Part shown: piece after piece, positions 1 to 14,957 of the stretch
Layout of the letters: every line of letters starts with the position of its first letter
Numbering within the stretch: position 1 is the first letter of the stretch
Assembly: GCA_038858525.1 (NCBI GenBank)
Contig: JAWCFL010000016.1
Coordinates: forward strand, 1 to 14,957
Direction: 5' to 3'
Source of the DNA: Candidatus Jordarchaeales archaeon
GTDB lineage: Archaea > Asgardarchaeota > Jordiarchaeia > Jordiarchaeales > Freyrarchaeaceae
Length of the DNA stretch: 14,957 nucleotides
Made by a program: the position numbers and the translations under genes
Notes under the pieces: generated by a model
What the model was told of the DNA's origin: nothing
The model's database searches: none
Seen by the model: the letters and a program-made list of their open reading frames with translations, nothing else

Positions 1-247
1 CCTCTCTAAATCCTCCTTCTGTTTCTGGTCATGGGGGGAACTCTGGTATAAATCACGGCTTTTTGGGCGTGTCTGTTTTAGCGATGCCCATCAAACGCTC
101 AACTTCACTTTCAGGTATCCTCCTCCTACCACCAACAGTCCTAACAACTCTGATCTTCCCCTGTTTATCCCATTTTCTAGGCGTATTTGGATGAATGCCT
201 GATCTCTCGCAGGCTTCGCTGAGCGTCAACAACCTCTCAATCATCAT
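1..247 (-). pseudogene. tnpA: IS607-family serine transposase TnpA, frameshifted, runs off the left edge
   Basis: ORF 53..247 is a MerR-like winged HTH typical of the IS607 TnpA N-terminus (LLTLSEACERSGIHPNTPRKWDKQGKIRVVRTVGGRRRIPESEV). Manual reading of minus strand 64..1 recovers the serine-recombinase catalytic start in two shifted frames: AVIYTRV (gcc gtg att tat acc aga gtt), then HDQKQKEDLER (cat gac cag aaa cag aag gag gat tta gag agg). Each break needs one extra base in a homopolymer (A5 at 60-64, C6 at 33-38 on minus). Confidence 0.85.
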
Positions 248-280: not shown

Positions 281-1138
281 CTATTCAGGAACTGCTGCAA
301 ACCCATACCTGTTCTGAAGGTTTTTTGCCGCGGCCGCCATTACAACGGCTCCAGCATACTCGTTAGGTGGCGCCGCCCTTGAAGTATCTATTACGGGCTT
401 CGGCAGGTTCAAGTATAATGCTCCATAAGACTTTCCTGAGCCGAGATGTATAAGCGTCCTATAAATCAAATTTCCCGATATTCCATCTGGTGCTACTATT
501 ACGTTTCTTTTATCCGTTACAGCGTCCTCTATCAGTATCTGGTAGTGTTCAGCGTCATAGCCGCCATCTTTGAGGCGAGCAACAACTTCTCCGGCGTCCC
601 TTATAGTCCCGTTGACTTTCGGGCTTCTGCCTAGATCGCTCAGGCGGCCACCGGAGATGATCGCTATTCTAGGGACCAGATTGATCTTTTTAAGGAAGTC
701 TGCCGCCCCCATGGCGAGTGAAACTTTTTCTTCAACGCCTTCTCCTTCATCTATGCCTACGGGGGCGAACATGAACTGGTGTCCGGTTGCGTCCTCCAGA
801 AGGGCAACCCTCAACACCTTCGCGACGTTAAATGCATCCTTCACATGCTTCAGGAAGGTTGAGGAACCAAGCCCCCCTCGAACCACTCCGTCTACGTCCC
901 CCGACACAAGGAGCTCCAACAGTTTCCTTTCAGGTTCCTCGGAGGGAGAAAAAGGCGCGCCTTTTATTTTTCCTTCAAGCTCCGGCCTTCCGACGAGGAC
1001 TACTTCAGCTTTGCCCAACACTTGCTTGACTCCGGAGACCACTCTACTGGCATTATTGAGGTCTCCTACACCTACACCCACCTTCACCCGTCTCTTAGAC
1101 GCTACCTGAAGAAGTGAAGGGTATATCAAAGGAATCAC
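281..1138 (-). CDS. mtxX: MtxX / methanogenesis marker protein 4-like protein (phosphotransacylase-like fold)
   Basis: 285 aa with family-typical segments VVRGGL, RVALLEDATGHQFMFAPVGIDEG, SGGRLSDLGRS, APDGISGNLIYRTL and IDTSRA. GTGA overlap with the M42 stop. Alternative start is TTG at 1129 behind GGTGA. Confidence 0.8.
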   Translation of the reverse strand: MIPLIYPSLLQVASKRRVKVGVGVGDLNNASRVVSGVKQVLGKAEVVLVGRPELEGKIKGAPFSPSEEPERKLLELLVSGDVDGVVRGGLGSSTFLKHVKDAFNVAKVLRVALLEDATGHQFMFAPVGIDEGEGVEEKVSLAMGAADFLKKINLVPRIAIISGGRLSDLGRSPKVNGTIRDAGEVVARLKDGGYDAEHYQILIEDAVTDKRNVIVAPDGISGNLIYRTLIHLGSGKSYGALYLNLPKPVIDTSRAAPPNEYAGAVVMAAAAKNLQNRYGFAAVPE

Positions 1139-2211
1139 CTTCGCGGCGCCAGTTTTTCATGTGCTCTTTCGAGCGTTAGTTTCAGGAGCTTCACGGCATT
1201 TTCGACGTCTTTAAGGTTTAGCACTTCTACTGGTGTGTGTATGTAGCGTGTCGGAACTGAGAGGACTGCTGCGGGAACGCCTTCCCTTGCCAGAGCGATT
1301 TCCGTTGCGTCCGTTGTGCCTCCCTCGAACACGTCCAGCTGGTAGGGTATCCCGTTTCTCTCCGCCGTCTCTATGAGGAGGCTTCTGGGGAGCGGGTGGG
1401 ATATGAGCCCTCCGCCGAGACTTTCGCGTCTACCATCAGCTATGGTGATCGCCGGTCCCTTTCCCAGCTTGACTGGTGCTTTCCTTTCATCGATTCCCGG
1501 GTAGTCTCCTGCTGCTGCGACGTCTACCGCGATACCCATGTCCGGGTCTACGGCGAACGTTGAGGTACGTGCCCCCCTGAGTCCAACTTCCTCCATTACT
1601 GACGCCACGCCGTAGACCGTGACCTCTGGATCAACGCTTTTCATGACCTCTGCGAGCACGAGGCAGCCCACCCTGTCGTCGAAAGCCTTTCCGCAGACGA
1701 AGCCGTTCTTAAGCTCCACAAGGTCACCGACCCAAGTTATCGGGCACCCCGTCCTGACACCCCATGACTCCGCCTCCTCTCTGCTTGTGGCACCTATGTC
1801 AATGAACATGTCCTCTCTTTCAACAGGCTTCTTGCGCTTTTCCTCCGGAAGCAGGTGGGGTGGCGTTGACCCTATAACTCCAGGTATGGTTTCCTTTTCC
1901 GTGTGAACGAGAACCCGCTGACTCAGAACTGTCTGGTCTAGGAACCCTCCAAGATAAGAGAACCTTATGAATCCCTCCTTCTCTATGTATTTGACTAGCA
2001 TGCCTATCTCGTCCATGTGTGCCGCCACCATGACCCTTCCGCTTCCTTTACCACCCTTCTTAACGCAGATCAAGTTGCCCAGCCTATCCTCTCTTACCTC
2101 GTCCACGTAATCCTTGAGTTCTTCCCTCATTAACCTCCTCACGTCCTCCTCATATCCTGATGGGGCACAAGCCTCAACAAGCCTCTTTAAGAGCTCCTTC
2201 ACCAAAATCAC
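1135..2211 (-). CDS. M42 family metallo-aminopeptidase (TET-like)
   Basis: Motifs APSGYE, AAHMDEIG, KAFDDRVG, EEVGLRGA, VDV, GGTTDA and RYIHTP. The true start is probably GTG at 2202, 5 nt after GAGGTGA. Confidence 0.93.
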   Translation of the reverse strand: MILVKELLKRLVEACAPSGYEEDVRRLMREELKDYVDEVREDRLGNLICVKKGGKGSGRVMVAAHMDEIGMLVKYIEKEGFIRFSYLGGFLDQTVLSQRVLVHTEKETIPGVIGSTPPHLLPEEKRKKPVEREDMFIDIGATSREEAESWGVRTGCPITWVGDLVELKNGFVCGKAFDDRVGCLVLAEVMKSVDPEVTVYGVASVMEEVGLRGARTSTFAVDPDMGIAVDVAAAGDYPGIDERKAPVKLGKGPAITIADGRRESLGGGLISHPLPRSLLIETAERNGIPYQLDVFEGGTTDATEIALAREGVPAAVLSVPTRYIHTPVEVLNLKDVENAVKLLKLTLERAHEKLAPRR

Positions 2212-2279: not shown

Positions 2280-2849
2280 CTAGTAACGAATGGTGGCGAA
2301 GGCGAGGTTTCCAAGGAAGAAAGAGATTAGAACGCTTAAAGTTATAAGCGGCATTAGGGGCGGAGAGAACTTCCTCCAGGAAAACCCATCAACTCCCTCC
2401 TTCCTTAACTCTCCCCTATTCCTGAAAAATCCTATTTTTGCTTTTTTTCTGATCCAGTAAGTGGCGGCTGCGGCTAGAGTTAGTGCTCCCAGCATAATGA
2501 ACAGGTTTGTTATTAGCGCTATGGGGAAAAAGTGAAGAGGGAGACGGCTGCGCCCCACAGGAGTAAGGAGGCAAGCCACGATGATCGCCTTGCAGTCAGC
2601 TCCCCCCAGAACTCTCATCCCGTGTAGTAGGTACGCGAGGAGCAGGGCTGAAGCCAAGCTTACAGTAACCTCCTCGACTTGGAATACTCCTTGCTCCACC
2701 ATTATGGGTGTTGTGGCAACTCCCACTAGGACAGGTGGAATCCATACTTTGTTAGGCACCCTCCTCGTTTTTACGTCGAAGTATGACGCACATGAAAGAG
2801 TTAAGAGGGCTATGGCAAGGGGGACGAGCTGAAAGGAAGAAACGTTCAA
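2280..2849 (-). CDS. A24 family prepilin/preflagellin peptidase (PibD/FlaK-like)
   Basis: Multi-TM 189 aa. First catalytic Asp in YFDVKTRRVPN, second in GGADCK, and a C-terminal W..FSPPLMPLIT motif. TTG start with GAGAGGGG RBS, 17 bp after the gltX stop. Confidence 0.85.
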   Translation of the reverse strand: MNVSSFQLVPLAIALLTLSCASYFDVKTRRVPNKVWIPPVLVGVATTPIMVEQGVFQVEEVTVSLASALLLAYLLHGMRVLGGADCKAIIVACLLTPVGRSRLPLHFFPIALITNLFIMLGALTLAAAATYWIRKKAKIGFFRNRGELRKEGVDGFSWRKFSPPLMPLITLSVLISFFLGNLAFATIRY

Positions 2850-2866: not shown

Positions 2867-4603
2867 TCAGTTGTGGGTGAAGAACAGGATTACTTCGGGC
2901 TCCACGGAGTCCACTCTGCAGAACCCGTACCTCTCAAACTGGACAAGCTTGTTCCTGGTGAGTTTACGGCAGTCCGGCTCGCTAAGCCCCTCGACGATCT
3001 CCCCATCCGGCTTGACAACTTTAACTTTCAAGCACCCCTCGGAGGGAACCCAATGTATTATTGGGGCTCTGCACGCCCTGGCATCACTCACGCTCAAGCT
3101 GTGGAACACCCCAACTACGCCCTTCTCACGTTTCTCCTCGACCTTAAAGTTTAACAGGTCTTTGAGCCTGAAGACGTCTCCCTCACTCATTTTCGCCACA
3201 TCTCTCTCATCCACATAGACCTCAGCACATCCATCTTTGACGTCGACCTCAACGGTTCTTGTACCCCTCTCCGGAAAGTCTGGATGAAGTGGCGGGTGCG
3301 CCACAAGCTTCCCAACGGGCACCTCCTCAACCAGCAGCTTAACGGGCTTCTCCACGAAGAAGTACCTATCAGCCTCAGGGTCAATCATCCTCCTATTGAC
3401 GGCATAGAGGCTCTCAGGACTGTACTCCACGTCGATCAAGCTCAACCCCAAGCTCAGTATAGATGCCCTTAATGCCTCTGGCTTTATCCCCCTCCTCTGG
3501 AGGGACTGCAGGCTCCATGTTCGCGGGTCACTCCACCCCATATAAACTCCTTTCTCTATGTTTTTACGTGCCTCCGTCTTGCTGAGCTTCAACCCCTTAA
3601 ATGTGATTATGCCGTAATGTATGAACTCAACTTCGGGCCACCCATAAATCTTCCACACGAACCTTTCAATGGCATCCTCCTTAACCAGGTCTTTACCTCT
3701 CAATATGTGGGTTATGCCAAGCAGGTGGTCGTCTATCGCCCACGAAAACTCAAGCAACGGCCAGACACGATACTTGGAGCCCACACGGGGGTGTTCCCTC
3801 TCAGAGATCCTCATTATGACATGGTCTCTCAGGGCAGGGTCAGCTTGATCCATGCCTGTCTTAAGCCTCACAACTGCATCCCCTTCCCCGTAAACCCCCT
3901 CCAGCATTCCCTCCCACCTTTCAAGGTTCTCCTCGACTGAGGAGTCCCTATGGGGGCAAGCTTTCATCTTCTCCTTGAAGTTCCTCCTCCACTCTTCTCG
4001 CTCACACGTACAAACATAAGCGTAACCCTTCCCGATCAAGTCCTCACAATACTCGTAAAAAATTGGAACTCTATCCGACTTGTAAAACTCCCCATGCCAC
4101 CTTACTCCAAGCCAATGTAACCCCTCAATTATGAGGTCGTATGCTTCAGGCACCACGTGCTTCTCTCCCCCACCTATCGTGTCGTCGAACACTAGAAGCA
4201 GCTCGCCCCCGTACCGCTTAACGTACTCGTCATTCAAGATAGCCATCCTGGCGTTTCCTATATGGAGGGGGCCTGAAGGGTAAGGAGCGAGTCTCATGAC
4301 AACCTTATCGTAATTCTCAACGTTTGGAAGCGGAGGTAGTTCCTTCCTCTCCTCCCCCCTCCTTTCCTCCAGAGTTTCCGGAGAAAGTTCCTCCAGCATC
4401 CTCCTCTGAGCATCTAGAGACATGGCGTTGACTTCCTCAACGACTCTAGTCACAGCTTCGAGGACCTCTTTCGCCCTCTGCCTTAACTCCGGGACTTCAG
4501 AGAGAATCTTTCCCATGACTGCCTTAGCGTTAGCCTTCCCACCGTACTTAACCGCGTTGGCGAGGACGTGTTTTAGAAGCTTCCTTCTCAACTCGTCCTC
4601 CAA
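2867..4603 (-). CDS. gltX: Glutamyl-tRNA synthetase, archaeal type
   Basis: 578 aa. Archaeal N-terminal domain (LANAVKYGGKA), MRLAPYPSGPLHIGNAR (HIGH-like), DDT, CxC...CxH Zn motif, ITHILRGKD, LSKT (KMSKS-like), GWSDPR, and C-terminal QFERYGFCRVD. Confidence 0.97.
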   Translation of the reverse strand: MEDELRRKLLKHVLANAVKYGGKANAKAVMGKILSEVPELRQRAKEVLEAVTRVVEEVNAMSLDAQRRMLEELSPETLEERRGEERKELPPLPNVENYDKVVMRLAPYPSGPLHIGNARMAILNDEYVKRYGGELLLVFDDTIGGGEKHVVPEAYDLIIEGLHWLGVRWHGEFYKSDRVPIFYEYCEDLIGKGYAYVCTCEREEWRRNFKEKMKACPHRDSSVEENLERWEGMLEGVYGEGDAVVRLKTGMDQADPALRDHVIMRISEREHPRVGSKYRVWPLLEFSWAIDDHLLGITHILRGKDLVKEDAIERFVWKIYGWPEVEFIHYGIITFKGLKLSKTEARKNIEKGVYMGWSDPRTWSLQSLQRRGIKPEALRASILSLGLSLIDVEYSPESLYAVNRRMIDPEADRYFFVEKPVKLLVEEVPVGKLVAHPPLHPDFPERGTRTVEVDVKDGCAEVYVDERDVAKMSEGDVFRLKDLLNFKVEEKREKGVVGVFHSLSVSDARACRAPIIHWVPSEGCLKVKVVKPDGEIVEGLSEPDCRKLTRNKLVQFERYGFCRVDSVEPEVILFFTHN

Positions 4604-6405: not shown

Positions 6406-6795
6406 GTGAAAGTTTTGTCTAAGAAATGGCGTGAAGAACTAGAAAAAATTCTTAAGGAAATGGAGGCCGCTGATCCCGACATTGAAGCATCAGCTATAGT
6501 TAGGACTGATGGTCTCGTCATGGCTTCAGCGCTCCCAAAAAGTGCTGATGAGGGTTTGATTGCCGCTATGAGTGCTGCCATACTCAACATTGGTTCTAGG
6601 GCTCTGAGTGAGCTCGCGAAGGGTGAGCTCGAAAAAATAATAGTAAGCGGAGACAAGGGAGACATAACCATTATGGGAGTAGGGAAAGAAGCTGTCCTCT
6701 CAGCCATAACGAAGCCGGGAGCGAACATAGGGCTGTTACTAGTGGAGATGGCAAGGGCGAGAGAAAAAGTAGAATCGGTACTCAAGGCGATGTAG
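6406..6795 (+). CDS. Roadblock/LC7 domain protein (MglB-like)
   Basis: DIEASAIVRTDGLVMAS, IAAMSAAILNIG, GELEKIIVSGDKG and NIGLLLVEM match the roadblock pattern. The likely start is TTG at 6415, 5 nt after GGTGA. Confidence 0.92.
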   Translation: MKVLSKKWREELEKILKEMEAADPDIEASAIVRTDGLVMASALPKSADEGLIAAMSAAILNIGSRALSELAKGELEKIIVSGDKGDITIMGVGKEAVLSAITKPGANIGLLLVEMARAREKVESVLKAM

Positions 6796-6808
6796 CTTCT
6801 GGAAGCTA
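6793..6808. terminator. Perfect palindrome TAGCTTC-TG-GAAGCTA spanning both convergent stop codons; candidate bidirectional 3'-end element
   Basis: Read directly: the plus-strand TAG (6793-95) and minus-strand TAG (6808-06) form the outer base pairs. Function is inferred. Confidence 0.4.
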
Positions 6809-7777
6809 GGATGCCTCTCTGATTACTTCACGTATCATTCTCTGCGTCTCATGAGGGGGAGGAGTGGTATTTATCATGTAAGTTCTCGTTCGCCTGAAAA
6901 GCTCTAGGAAGAACCTGTTTCTAACCTTGTTTTTCCTTTCGTCCTTCTGGAGAAGATGAGGGTTCAGGTAGTCGTGCTTAACAATGTAGTCAAGTGCCTC
7001 CTCCGGTGTGAGTTCCCTGACCACTTGCGGGTCATTTCGGTCCCTTTTTAAGAGTATCATTACGTCTAACGTCGTCATCGGGAGAAACCTGTGTTCTCCC
7101 ATAAACCACCTTAAGTTCACCACAGCCCTGCCGTAGGCGTCAAGCTTCTCTTCCTCTATCAACTCCTTGATTTCAGGGAATATGTTCACTATGTCGTTCC
7201 TCACGTAGATCTCCTTCTCACTCGCATAGGCCACAGCGTCATCCCCATAGAACCTCACAAAGAACCAGTCGTCGCTCACCAGCCTGGCCCCATCAACCTT
7301 CATTAGGCCGAACGTATGCGTGGTTTTCCCCGTGCCGCTAGGCGCAACTATGCCTACTCCCTTACCCCACTTGCCCATGTTTAAAGCTGCTCCATGAACG
7401 CTGTAGACGGCGTGTACGTCCTCGAGGATATCCCCAACTATGCTCAGCGCGGTGCTTTTCAGCTTGCCGTAGTAGTCCACGTTGAACATGAAGCATGTCC
7501 TACCCTGAGGCTGGTAGAGTATCGTGTCCTTAGGGTATGCCGGGTCGAAGAAGTAGAATACTCTCCCATGGCTTCTGATGTCCTCGTCACTCACAAAGAA
7601 GTTCCGCTCAAAAATATCGATAACCTCCCTGACATCAGTAACGAGTTTAAGGACAGCCCCGTAAATTTTAGCCTTCCTCTTATACTTTAGCCTCTTAGCT
7701 CTCTCAAGCCGCTCCAAAATCTCATCTTCTTCATCAGGAGAGATAAGTTTAACTTGGTACTCCAAGTTCACCACCAA
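6806..7777 (-). CDS. HPr kinase/PEPCK-like P-loop protein of unknown substrate
   Basis: SVHGAAL, Walker A APSGTGKTT and the LVSDDW acidic pair are the HprK/PEPCK-class signature. The N-terminal domain is unassigned. All plausible starts are TTG or GTG. Confidence 0.75.
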   Translation of the reverse strand: MVVNLEYQVKLISPDEEDEILERLERAKRLKYKRKAKIYGAVLKLVTDVREVIDIFERNFFVSDEDIRSHGRVFYFFDPAYPKDTILYQPQGRTCFMFNVDYYGKLKSTALSIVGDILEDVHAVYSVHGAALNMGKWGKGVGIVAPSGTGKTTHTFGLMKVDGARLVSDDWFFVRFYGDDAVAYASEKEIYVRNDIVNIFPEIKELIEEEKLDAYGRAVVNLRWFMGEHRFLPMTTLDVMILLKRDRNDPQVVRELTPEEALDYIVKHDYLNPHLLQKDERKNKVRNRFFLELFRRTRTYMINTTPPPHETQRMIREVIREAS

Positions 7778-9847: not shown

Positions 9848-10234
9848 ATGAAAATACTAAAAAGCTTTTTTACTTCCAGCGCATCCGTCTGGATGGTGGT
9901 TGCTGTTTTGAGCGATTACATCTATGGTCTGTGTTTCGTTGATTCCGTCGAAGTTGAAGCCTTTTCAGCTGGCTCTGTTAGGCTGAAAATTCGAGGAGCG
10001 TGGCCAACTCCGGCTTGGAAATTTGATCATGAAGAACTGGAATTTTCAGGAGGAAGAGTCACAATTAAACTGGTAGGCAAAGTGGGGAAAGGCACCGTTG
10101 CCCCGTCAGTCATGGCCCCCTTCGAGCACGTTGTGGAAGTTAAGGGCCTAGAAGCAACAGAGTACATCATAGAAGTCGCTGAGAGAGGAGGACGCGTAGT
10201 GCAGGTATTCGTTAAGCGTGAGGAGCACGATTAG
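9848..10234 (+). CDS. Small beta-rich hypothetical protein (possible Ig-like/PrcB_C-like fold); start may be ATG 9893
   Basis: Fills the gap between divergent genes with coding-like composition. The G.WPTP.W ... PSV..PFE..V.V.GL....Y.I.V pattern resembles small beta-sandwich domains, judged by eye only. Confidence 0.65.
   Translation: MKILKSFFTSSASVWMVVAVLSDYIYGLCFVDSVEVEAFSAGSVRLKIRGAWPTPAWKFDHEELEFSGGRVTIKLVGKVGKGTVAPSVMAPFEHVVEVKGLEATEYIIEVAERGGRVVQVFVKREEHD
9859..9870. promoter_or_regulatory. Perfect 12-bp palindrome AAAAAGCTTTTT; candidate shared BRE/TATA core for both directions
   Basis: Read directly. It lies 22 nt before ATG 9893 (plus) and 60 nt before the CoA-transferase ATG 9798 (minus). 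Confidence 0.45.
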
Positions 10235-14023: not shown

Positions 14024-14037
14024 AAACTAGTTAGTTT
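14024..14037. promoter_or_regulatory. Palindrome AAACTA-GT-TAGTTT just upstream of a TTAAATAA TATA-like box (minus, 14020-14013) for the CDF gene; candidate operator
   Basis: Perfect 6-bp inverted repeat, read directly. Regulatory role is inferred. Confidence 0.35.
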
Positions 14038-14957
14038 CAGCGTCTCTGGATTTCTCCGATCTCCTCCAGCACCTTTGAAGCAACCCAACGTACATCCCAA
14101 TTTTCATCTCTCAATGCCTTAACGAGTTGATCTATTGCTTTTGCGTCCCCGATTTTTCCTAGTGCTTCTGCCGCCGCCCTGCGTACTCCCTCACTCTTAT
14201 CCCTCAACGCTGCTGCAAGAAGCTCTATTGCTTTTGCGTCCCCGATTTTTCCTAGTGCTTCTGCCGCCGCCCTGCGTACTCCCTCACTCTTATCCCTCAA
14301 CGCTGCTGCAAGCGGCTCAACAACCATCGCGTCCCCAGTATTCCCCAGCGCCAGAGCCGCCGCTCTACGCACACTTTCATTCCTATCATTTAGCGCTGCC
14401 ATTAATGGCCTAATTACTCTCACATCTCTGATCTTCCCTAGTGCTTCTGCCACTGCTCTTCGTACATCCCAGTTTTCATCGTTCAGCGCCATTACTAGTG
14501 GCTCGACTGCTCGTACATCACCGATCATTCCCAAAGCTTCCGCCGCTGCCCTACGAACATCCCAATTCTCACTCCGTAGCATCGCGGTGAGTGGACCAAC
14601 AGCCCTTGTATCCCTAATCATTCCCAGCGCCAAAGCAGCGGCCATACGAACATTCTCATTTTCATCCCGTAGTGTTGCTATGAGCGGCTCAACCGCCCTC
14701 GCGTCTCTTATCTCTCCCAGCGCTAGGGCTGCCGCCCTTCTCACGCTATCACTTTCATCCCGTAGTGTTGCTATGAGCGGCTCAACCGCCCTCGCGTCTC
14801 TTATCTCTCCCAGCGCTAGGGCTGCCGCCTTCCTCACCTCCCAGTTTTCATCTTTTAATGCAGCGGAGAGCGATTCAGTAGCTTGTGCATTCCCGATCAT
14901 TCCTAACGCTAAAGCTGCGGCTACGCGTACATCCTGGTTTTCGTCTCGTAGTAGTTC
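14037..14957 (-). CDS. HEAT-like (PBS lyase / alphaRep-type) 31-aa repeat protein, 5'-partial
   Basis: Repeats of L.D.(N/S)..VR.AAA.ALG.I.D..AV..L. The frame is open from the window edge ([19 protein letters not shown] precedes the called Met at 14900), so the real start lies outside the window. Confidence 0.93.
14131..14312. repeat. Exact DNA duplication, 93-bp period (14131-14219 = 14224-14312)
   Basis: 89 identical bases on manual comparison. Confidence 0.9.
14660..14829. repeat. Exact DNA duplication, 93-bp period (14660-14736 = 14753-14829)
   Basis: 77 identical bases on manual comparison. Confidence 0.9.

Follow-up and report, generated by a model that had tools for sequence, protein, structure and literature searches.

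What does MtxX (methanogenesis marker protein 4, Mmp4) do in an archaeon in which no Mcr was found? The question is raised by an open reading frame at positions 281 to 1138 (minus strand) of the window, the whole 14,957-nt stretch of DNA analysed here, which comes from a genome of Jordarchaeia (Asgard) that is 92.7% complete (G000).

Identity and genomic neighbourhood of mtxX

The identity of the product was examined by HMM search, and its assignment to MtxX in the original prediction was upheld. The protein matched TIGR03270 (Mmp4/MtxX) with 220.3 bits (cut-off 190), while the Pta and Ptb models gave 17–30 bits against cut-offs of 282–413 (the top one 29.7 against 310), ruling out a canonical Pta or Ptb. 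The nearest solved structure by sequence is 9NZY, an MtxX (E 4e-39), which was also the top fold match (Z 29.1, rmsd 2.4, 233 aligned) of the predicted model (pLDDT 95). Ptb and Pta (both at Z ~25.6), the PTA domain of MaeB, PlsX and PdxA followed in the ranking, and the model also agrees with the proposed phosphotransacylase-like fold.

All ten cleft residues of 9NZY (R54, R74, R128, R134, N185, F188, R189, D213, S215, R216) are kept, the counterparts in the protein analysed here being R87, R110, R165, R171, N223, Y226, R227, D251, S253 and R254. The cleft of MtxX is basic with a hydrophobic patch and suits an acidic and hydrophobic ligand (PMC12978539). Two residues, H231 (Leu193 in 9NZY) and E260 (Gly222 in 9NZY), are clade-specific, being invariant in 72 Asgard-side rows and rare elsewhere. 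Among the PTA active-site residues, Ser253 and Arg254 are kept, and Glu260 aligns, in a sequence alignment only, to the catalytic Asp, which methanogen MtxX lacks (PMC12978539). The protein therefore resembles methanogen MtxX/Mmp4 (TIGR03270; m15 of Borrel/Adam; 9NZY, PMC12978539) in family score, fold, Arg-rich cleft and DTSR motif, but differs from it in His231 and Glu260, in a host without detected Mcr and in having no mtxAH, uppS or mmp2 neighbour. With Pta, Ptb and PlsX it shares the fold (Z 22–26), the active-site Ser and Arg and, by sequence alignment, an acid at the base position; it is, however, shorter, carries extra cleft arginines, scores far under every cut-off of these families and was found with no acyl kinase partner.

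The gene preceding mtxX encodes an M42 aminopeptidase (1135–2211, minus strand), and the two had been taken as translationally coupled through a GTGA overlap. The overlap of the M42 stop with a GTG start is present in the sequence (1135–1138), and starting from GTG 1138 the protein has 285 aa. Public gene calls, however, start three codons downstream, at TTG 1129 (282 aa), and the overlap lies inside an AGGTGA Shine–Dalgarno-like motif (1135–1140, minus strand) that precedes this TTG by 5 nt. Either codon may thus be the true start, and the overlap may be the ribosome-binding site of mtxX rather than its start. A promoter and terminator scan gave results at chance level.

Conservation of the M42 linkage was surveyed, and the overlap proved not to be conserved. 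In all Jordarchaeia loci examined, and in L045/L046 of one other Asgard lineage, mtxX follows an M42 gene, which was seen in this position nowhere else. The gap is −4 nt in three genomes of the host genus and in L045/L046, 11–12 nt in two close relatives and 34–71 nt in the sister family. In most relatives a different gene lies upstream of mtxX, one for an Rce1-like protease in probable Lokiarchaeia and others in Atabeyarchaeia and Baldrarchaeia. Because of this variable spacing and these differing neighbours we reject M42 as a functional partner and read the link as lineage synteny. In Jordarchaeia, M42 and mtxX belong to a run that continues with genes for an A24 prepilin-type peptidase (2280–2849, minus strand) and glutamyl-tRNA synthetase, gltX (2867–4603, minus strand); since gltX is found close to mtxX in 37 of the loci retrieved, the run is taken as an old housekeeping neighbourhood.

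On the linkage to M42 the original prediction had built a role in peptide and amino-acid fermentation, MtxX acting as an acyl-CoA:phosphate transacylase on peptide-breakdown products. The PTA fold with Ser253, Arg254 and the aligned Glu260, the M42 gene next to mtxX in the loci named above and the failure to find a canonical Pta in the host genome are in line with this role. However, a search of five genomes with MtxX, of which three are single-contig, found no acetate/butyrate kinase (PF00871), and a Ptb-Buk pair was rejected on this ground, while the host genome carries five His-bearing ADP-forming acyl-CoA synthetase alpha subunits. In addition, M. jannaschii has MtxX and yet lacks PTA activity, and butyrate was not bound in MtxX crystals (PMC12978539). 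Because no such kinase was found, a fermentative role for MtxX is unlikely, and in the form coupled to M42 it appears highly improbable. What stands of the proposal is that MtxX works on acyl-CoA or acyl-phosphate rather than in methyl transfer, which is the best-supported chemistry; the tie to fermentation through M42 is unsupported.

Several other features of the window were noted. Downstream of mtxX lies the start of an IS607/IS605-like element (small HTH protein, resolvase fragment and TnpB; window 92–247, minus strand, and L037/L038/L039), placed between mtxX and the ABC transporter gene that directly follows mtxX in relatives; TnpB-type genes are also found 3' of mtxX in Atabeyarchaeia (L041/L042). 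A 323-aa P-loop protein with weak HprK/PEPCK similarity and no Pfam match (6806–7777, minus strand) is encoded convergently with a Roadblock/LC7 gene (6406–6795), and a 128-aa frame at 9848–10234 (plus strand) has no Pfam match. A HEAT/PBS-lyase-like protein with about nine near-identical 31-residue repeats (14037–14957, minus strand) runs past the window end.

Methanogen-type genes of the host and distribution of MtxX

The claim that mtxX stands here outside any methanogenesis context was only partly borne out. No mcr or mtr genes occur in the window, as originally stated. McrA was found neither in the host genome nor in 150 other Asgard genomes (151 in total), McrB was not found in the five Asgard genomes searched, host included, and MtrE was not found in the host genome. 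The same genome, however, encodes an MtrA–MtrH fusion (C12:34818–36347, L071), away from mtxX and of the kind described in PMC11291895, together with three further MtrH, a canonical HdrB (433 bits), and both ComD and Mmp16 above cut-off, Mmp16 being CoM synthase (PMC12068725). Mmp2 (contig C26) scored 361.5 bits, slightly under its cut-off of 365, and an MSMEG_0568-type radical SAM gene is found on contig C4 (356 bits, cut-off 304). Ftr was not found in the host genome, though it is present in congeners. Genes for Mmp2, the radical SAM enzyme and the other module partners considered below were not found near mtxX in this genome.

As to the 2-oxosuberate pathway (AksA, AksDE, AksF), the host encodes several LeuA/LeuB-family paralogues, one of them beside hdrB, and none passed an Aks cut-off. 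A LeuB/AksF-family dehydrogenase gene, passing no family cut-off, is convergent with the canonical hdrB (C39:7795–9874, L081). An Mmp11-like protein of the host is an HTH fusion below cut-off (C3:36451–37575, L060), conserved in Jordarchaeia, and its gene lies near an apparent methanopterin biosynthesis cluster (pterin-binding, DUF1464 and GHMP kinase-like proteins).

The MtrA–MtrH fusion and the three additional MtrH would suit a role of MtxX in assisting corrinoid methyl transfer, as the mtxXAH operon of Methanosarcina suggests. On the other side, the MtxX-bearing single-contig genome G210 lacks MtrA and MtrH, mtxX of the host is unlinked to such genes (adjacent mtxA and mtxH are absent and the fusion is on C12), and MtxX, according to its predicted fold and PMC12978539, does not have a methyltransferase fold. 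We consider this role very improbable.

Hosts of this type have been described before. Marker genes without Mcr are also a property of mcr-less archaea with methanogenesis remnants (m15–m17 in JdFR-21; PMC9635834), and Freyarchaeia, likewise without Mcr, share HdrABC, CoM genes and an MtrAH fusion with the host (PMC11291895). The passages of these two papers that were searched assign no function to MtxX, which PMC9635834 states could not be inferred, and they do not contain the alternation described below. MtxX in mcr-less archaea had also been published (PMC12978539; PMC9635834), so that the original surprise at MtxX beyond methanogens, though Mcr was indeed not found in the host, was overstated. 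NCBI annotation already names MtxX in these Asgard lineages. The host mtxX is ordinary for its lineage, and both the family and the host type were already known.

MtxX was detected in 76 of 251 Asgard genomes and was distributed cleanly by family, with 53 of 55 genomes in family f9. Families f1 and f2 are Jordarchaeia, f13 Atabeyarchaeia and f15 Baldrarchaeia by named hits, and f9 and f23 are probably Lokiarchaeia. At two loci of f23 (L104, L105), MtxX is enlarged to about 396 aa, falls under the TIGR03270 cut-off and is encoded beside a ribosomal protein operon. In a quick, midpoint-rooted tree, Asgard MtxX grouped with that of probable Thermoproteota, apart from euryarchaeal methanogens (SH-aLRT 95), and MtxX of Syntrophus nested among Methanocellales. 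The tree fits vertical inheritance but, being quick and midpoint-rooted, gives neither a donor nor a direction or order of events.

Operon partners of MtxX and alternation with a GNAT

Outside the host lineage, the recurring partners of MtxX across distant lineages are Mmp11 (TiaS-kinase-like, related to the tRNA enzyme TiaS), Mmp2 (PurM/ThiL/SelD-like) and a radical SAM enzyme. The gene orders are mtxX-mmp11-rSAM in L265, with all three above cut-off, mmp11-rSAM-mtxX in L123, mmp11-mtxX-mmp2 in L135 and L141, and mtxX-mmp11-mmp2 in L003; mtxX is also joined to mmp11, mmp2 and/or the MSMEG_0568-family radical SAM gene in L148 and L195. In Syntrophus and other probable bacteria (L113–L118), nested among Methanocellales, mmp11-mtxX forms a two-gene unit next to an ABC exporter gene. 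Mmp11 was rejected as a universal partner: most Asgard families with MtxX gave no Mmp11 match, and the host copy is the HTH fusion below cut-off. DUF1464 was likewise rejected as a kinase partner, being present in families f4, f8, f12 and f18 without MtxX and absent from f10 and f15, and is distinct from Mmp12 (PMC9635834 supplement). In a lineage near Methanosarcinaceae, a proC-like gene lies directly upstream of mtxX (L179, L182, L192, L197).

Co-occurrence was profiled over 151 Asgard genomes, the module being defined as HdrB over its cut-off together with Mmp2 and the MSMEG_0568-type radical SAM enzyme; searches for GNAT and ACD relied on single proteins as queries and on fixed thresholds. 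These three proteins gave nearly identical family profiles and occurred together in 97 of the 151 genomes, and canonical HdrB was present in 43 of 44 MtxX-bearing genomes. The H4MPT control Ftr behaved otherwise, being present in four families largely without the module and absent from one with it, and a link to the H4MPT pathway was rejected on this basis.

A GNAT acyltransferase gene adjoining that of the radical SAM enzyme was first noticed in three families, and three more families without MtxX were then tested for the GNAT. It was detected in 26 of 27, 1 of 1, 19 of 19, 3 of 4, 4 of 4 and 1 of 1 genomes of these six families, five of which lack MtxX, and in none of the six families with MtxX only; a profile search of the host genome gave no orthologue. 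In the loci examined, the GNAT and radical SAM genes are neighbours or form a fusion. A fusion in one frame of 541–581 aa occurs in part of family f12 (L231/L244 of G030; G079; G115), and in family f7 (L242, L225–L232) an aldehyde dehydrogenase gene follows the radical SAM–GNAT pair.

Within the 97 module genomes, 41 carried MtxX only, 52 GNAT only, two both and two neither, though these counts overstate the alternation, since related genomes are not independent and it reflects few events rather than 97. Among the 54 genomes outside the module, MtxX was found in one and GNAT in none; the exception, 80% complete, has HdrB and a partial mmp2 beside mtxX. On a tree of the radical SAM enzyme the MtxX and GNAT states need two to three switches, a single GNAT clade being rejected (p-AU 0.003). 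The near-exclusive alternation of MtxX with a GNAT inside one Asgard gene set is the new observation of this analysis.

On contig C4 of the host (77071–79517, L212), the radical SAM gene is followed by a gene for an acyl-CoA synthetase alpha subunit (ACD-alpha) with the phospho-His loop deleted. Such a His-loop-less ACD-alpha, in which about 20 residues holding the phospho-His are missing, is encoded beside the radical SAM gene, or close to it, in five MtxX-bearing Asgard families, which are most of the MtxX lineages, and was found in no GNAT family. A complex prediction of MtxX with this protein scored 0.00, which counts neither for nor against an interaction. ComD was patchy among HdrB-positive Asgard genomes. 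At cut-off, neither M. jannaschii nor M. acetivorans, both of which make CoB, gave a match to the radical SAM family, and Synechococcus, which has no canonical HdrB, gave one; the module is for these reasons not a feature of all CoB makers, nor of CoB makers only.

A possible role in synthesis of a coenzyme-B-like thiol

Coenzyme B is an acyl-threonine-phosphate thiol. GNATs move acyl groups from acyl-CoA, usually onto amines; TiaS-type domains use ATP to phosphorylate a carbonyl oxygen before amine attack; and PTA-fold enzymes exchange acyl groups with acyl-phosphate. Older biochemistry from the White laboratory is said to have pointed to an acyl-phosphate intermediate in formation of the CoB amide. 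Against this background, MtxX together with a partner forming acyl-phosphate could do in two steps the one-step job of the GNAT, attaching the acyl chain to an amine, for example threonine. The partner would be the His-loop-less ACD-alpha in the host genome and the TiaS-type Mmp11 in methanogens and Syntrophus. An ACD-alpha of this form might still bind acyl-CoA and produce acyl-phosphate, but could not pass the phosphate on. Which of the two proteins forms the acyl-phosphate and which the amide may be in either order; Glu260 at the position of the PTA catalytic Asp, and His231 in the cleft, suggest that Asgard MtxX may run the CoA/phosphate exchange, with ACD-alpha making the amide. That MtxX is an acyl transferase in this module, whatever the product, we hold to be probable.

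The module comprises Mmp2 (a ThiL/PurM-type kinase), an acyl-activating partner and the MSMEG_0568-type radical SAM enzyme. It goes together with canonical HdrABC, and its product would most likely be the second thiol of HdrABC, coenzyme B or a close analogue. This product is suggested because the module follows a CoB-CoM-type HdrB and because the late steps of CoB synthesis have no assigned enzymes (PMC12068725). The published MtxX cleft would also accommodate a ligand of this type (PMC12978539). With less assurance, Mmp2 might add the phosphate, the radical SAM enzyme might provide one possible route of sulfur insertion, and the product might be CoB-like. As a biosynthetic acyl(-phosphate) transferase, MtxX would then probably make a coenzyme-B-like thiol for HdrABC, a reading that we favour tentatively and place somewhat short of an even chance. 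Its wider form, in which MtxX carries out the missing acyl-phosphate/amide step of CoB synthesis, three routes (MtxX with Mmp11, MtxX with His-less ACD-alpha, and GNAT) are interchangeable, and most anaerobic Asgard make CoB or a close analogue for HdrABC without methanogenesis, is more doubtful.

Several observations count against the favoured reading. The alternation amounts to two or three independent events, and two genomes carry both MtxX and GNAT. The radical SAM enzyme was not detected at cut-off in the two model methanogens, ComD is patchy and the majority of Asgard MtxX families gave no match to Mmp11; no clear AksA or AksF orthologue could be assigned, and no partner gene is near the host mtxX. 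Furthermore, the perfect complement of GNAT is not MtxX but the His-less ACD-alpha, which could be the whole replacement.

If ACD-alpha alone replaced GNAT, MtxX would be a PTA-fold protein with a ligand-binding or regulatory function, comparable to the PTA domain of MaeB, or else a remnant serving some other purpose. ACD-alpha and GNAT are never found together, and each lies at or close to the same gene, whereas MtxX co-occurs with GNAT in two genomes and is absent from the mmp2 locus in a third representative of their genus; the lack of the PTA catalytic Asp in methanogen MtxX (PMC12978539) points the same way. Families without the GNAT, however, encode MtxX with an invariant Arg/Ser cleft in practically all their genomes (as in f9 above), mtxX shares operons with module genes elsewhere, and the Asgard protein has Glu at the catalytic-base position. 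We consider this alternative decidedly unlikely.

Alternatively, MtxX could be the acyl transferase of the Mmp2/radical SAM/Mmp11 module with a product other than the Hdr thiol, for instance a Nit1C-type metabolite, another small sulfur-containing molecule, or a modified protein or RNA. The radical SAM and AIR-synthase-like families are known to make up, with a GNAT, the bacterial Nit1C cluster (MSMEG_0568 radical SAM, sll0787 AIR-synthase-like protein and GNAT), and TIGR04043 and TIGR04049 were matched here; the radical SAM family matches in Synechococcus and not in M. jannaschii, and Mmp11 is related to TiaS. The host shares with Nit1C the radical SAM family and a related AIR-synthase-like protein, but its genes are scattered (C4 and C26) with no nitrilase link, MtxX and His-less ACD-alpha take the place of GNAT, and the Asgard GNAT does not match the Nit1C GNAT model. 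Against such a product, the module tracks canonical HdrB tightly in Asgard, and not Ftr, and both MtxX and Mmp2 are methanogen markers. We regard a product outside Hdr metabolism as unlikely, but as deserving weight beside the coenzyme-B-like thiol.

The present case again shows that Mmp4 is not diagnostic of methanogenesis. If the coenzyme-B-like role is correct, the alternation with GNAT would give a concrete, testable function to a possibly essential methanogen protein that has a solved structure and no known ligand, and would name enzymes for the unassigned last steps of CoB synthesis. Such enzymes are required if Mcr is to be rebuilt in other hosts, and they are a possible target against livestock methane. 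For the Asgard archaea themselves, the HdrABC substrate of Freyarchaeia and Atabeyarchaeia is given as unidentified in PMC11291895, and the role proposed here for MtxX, if true, would identify this "unidentified heterodisulfide".
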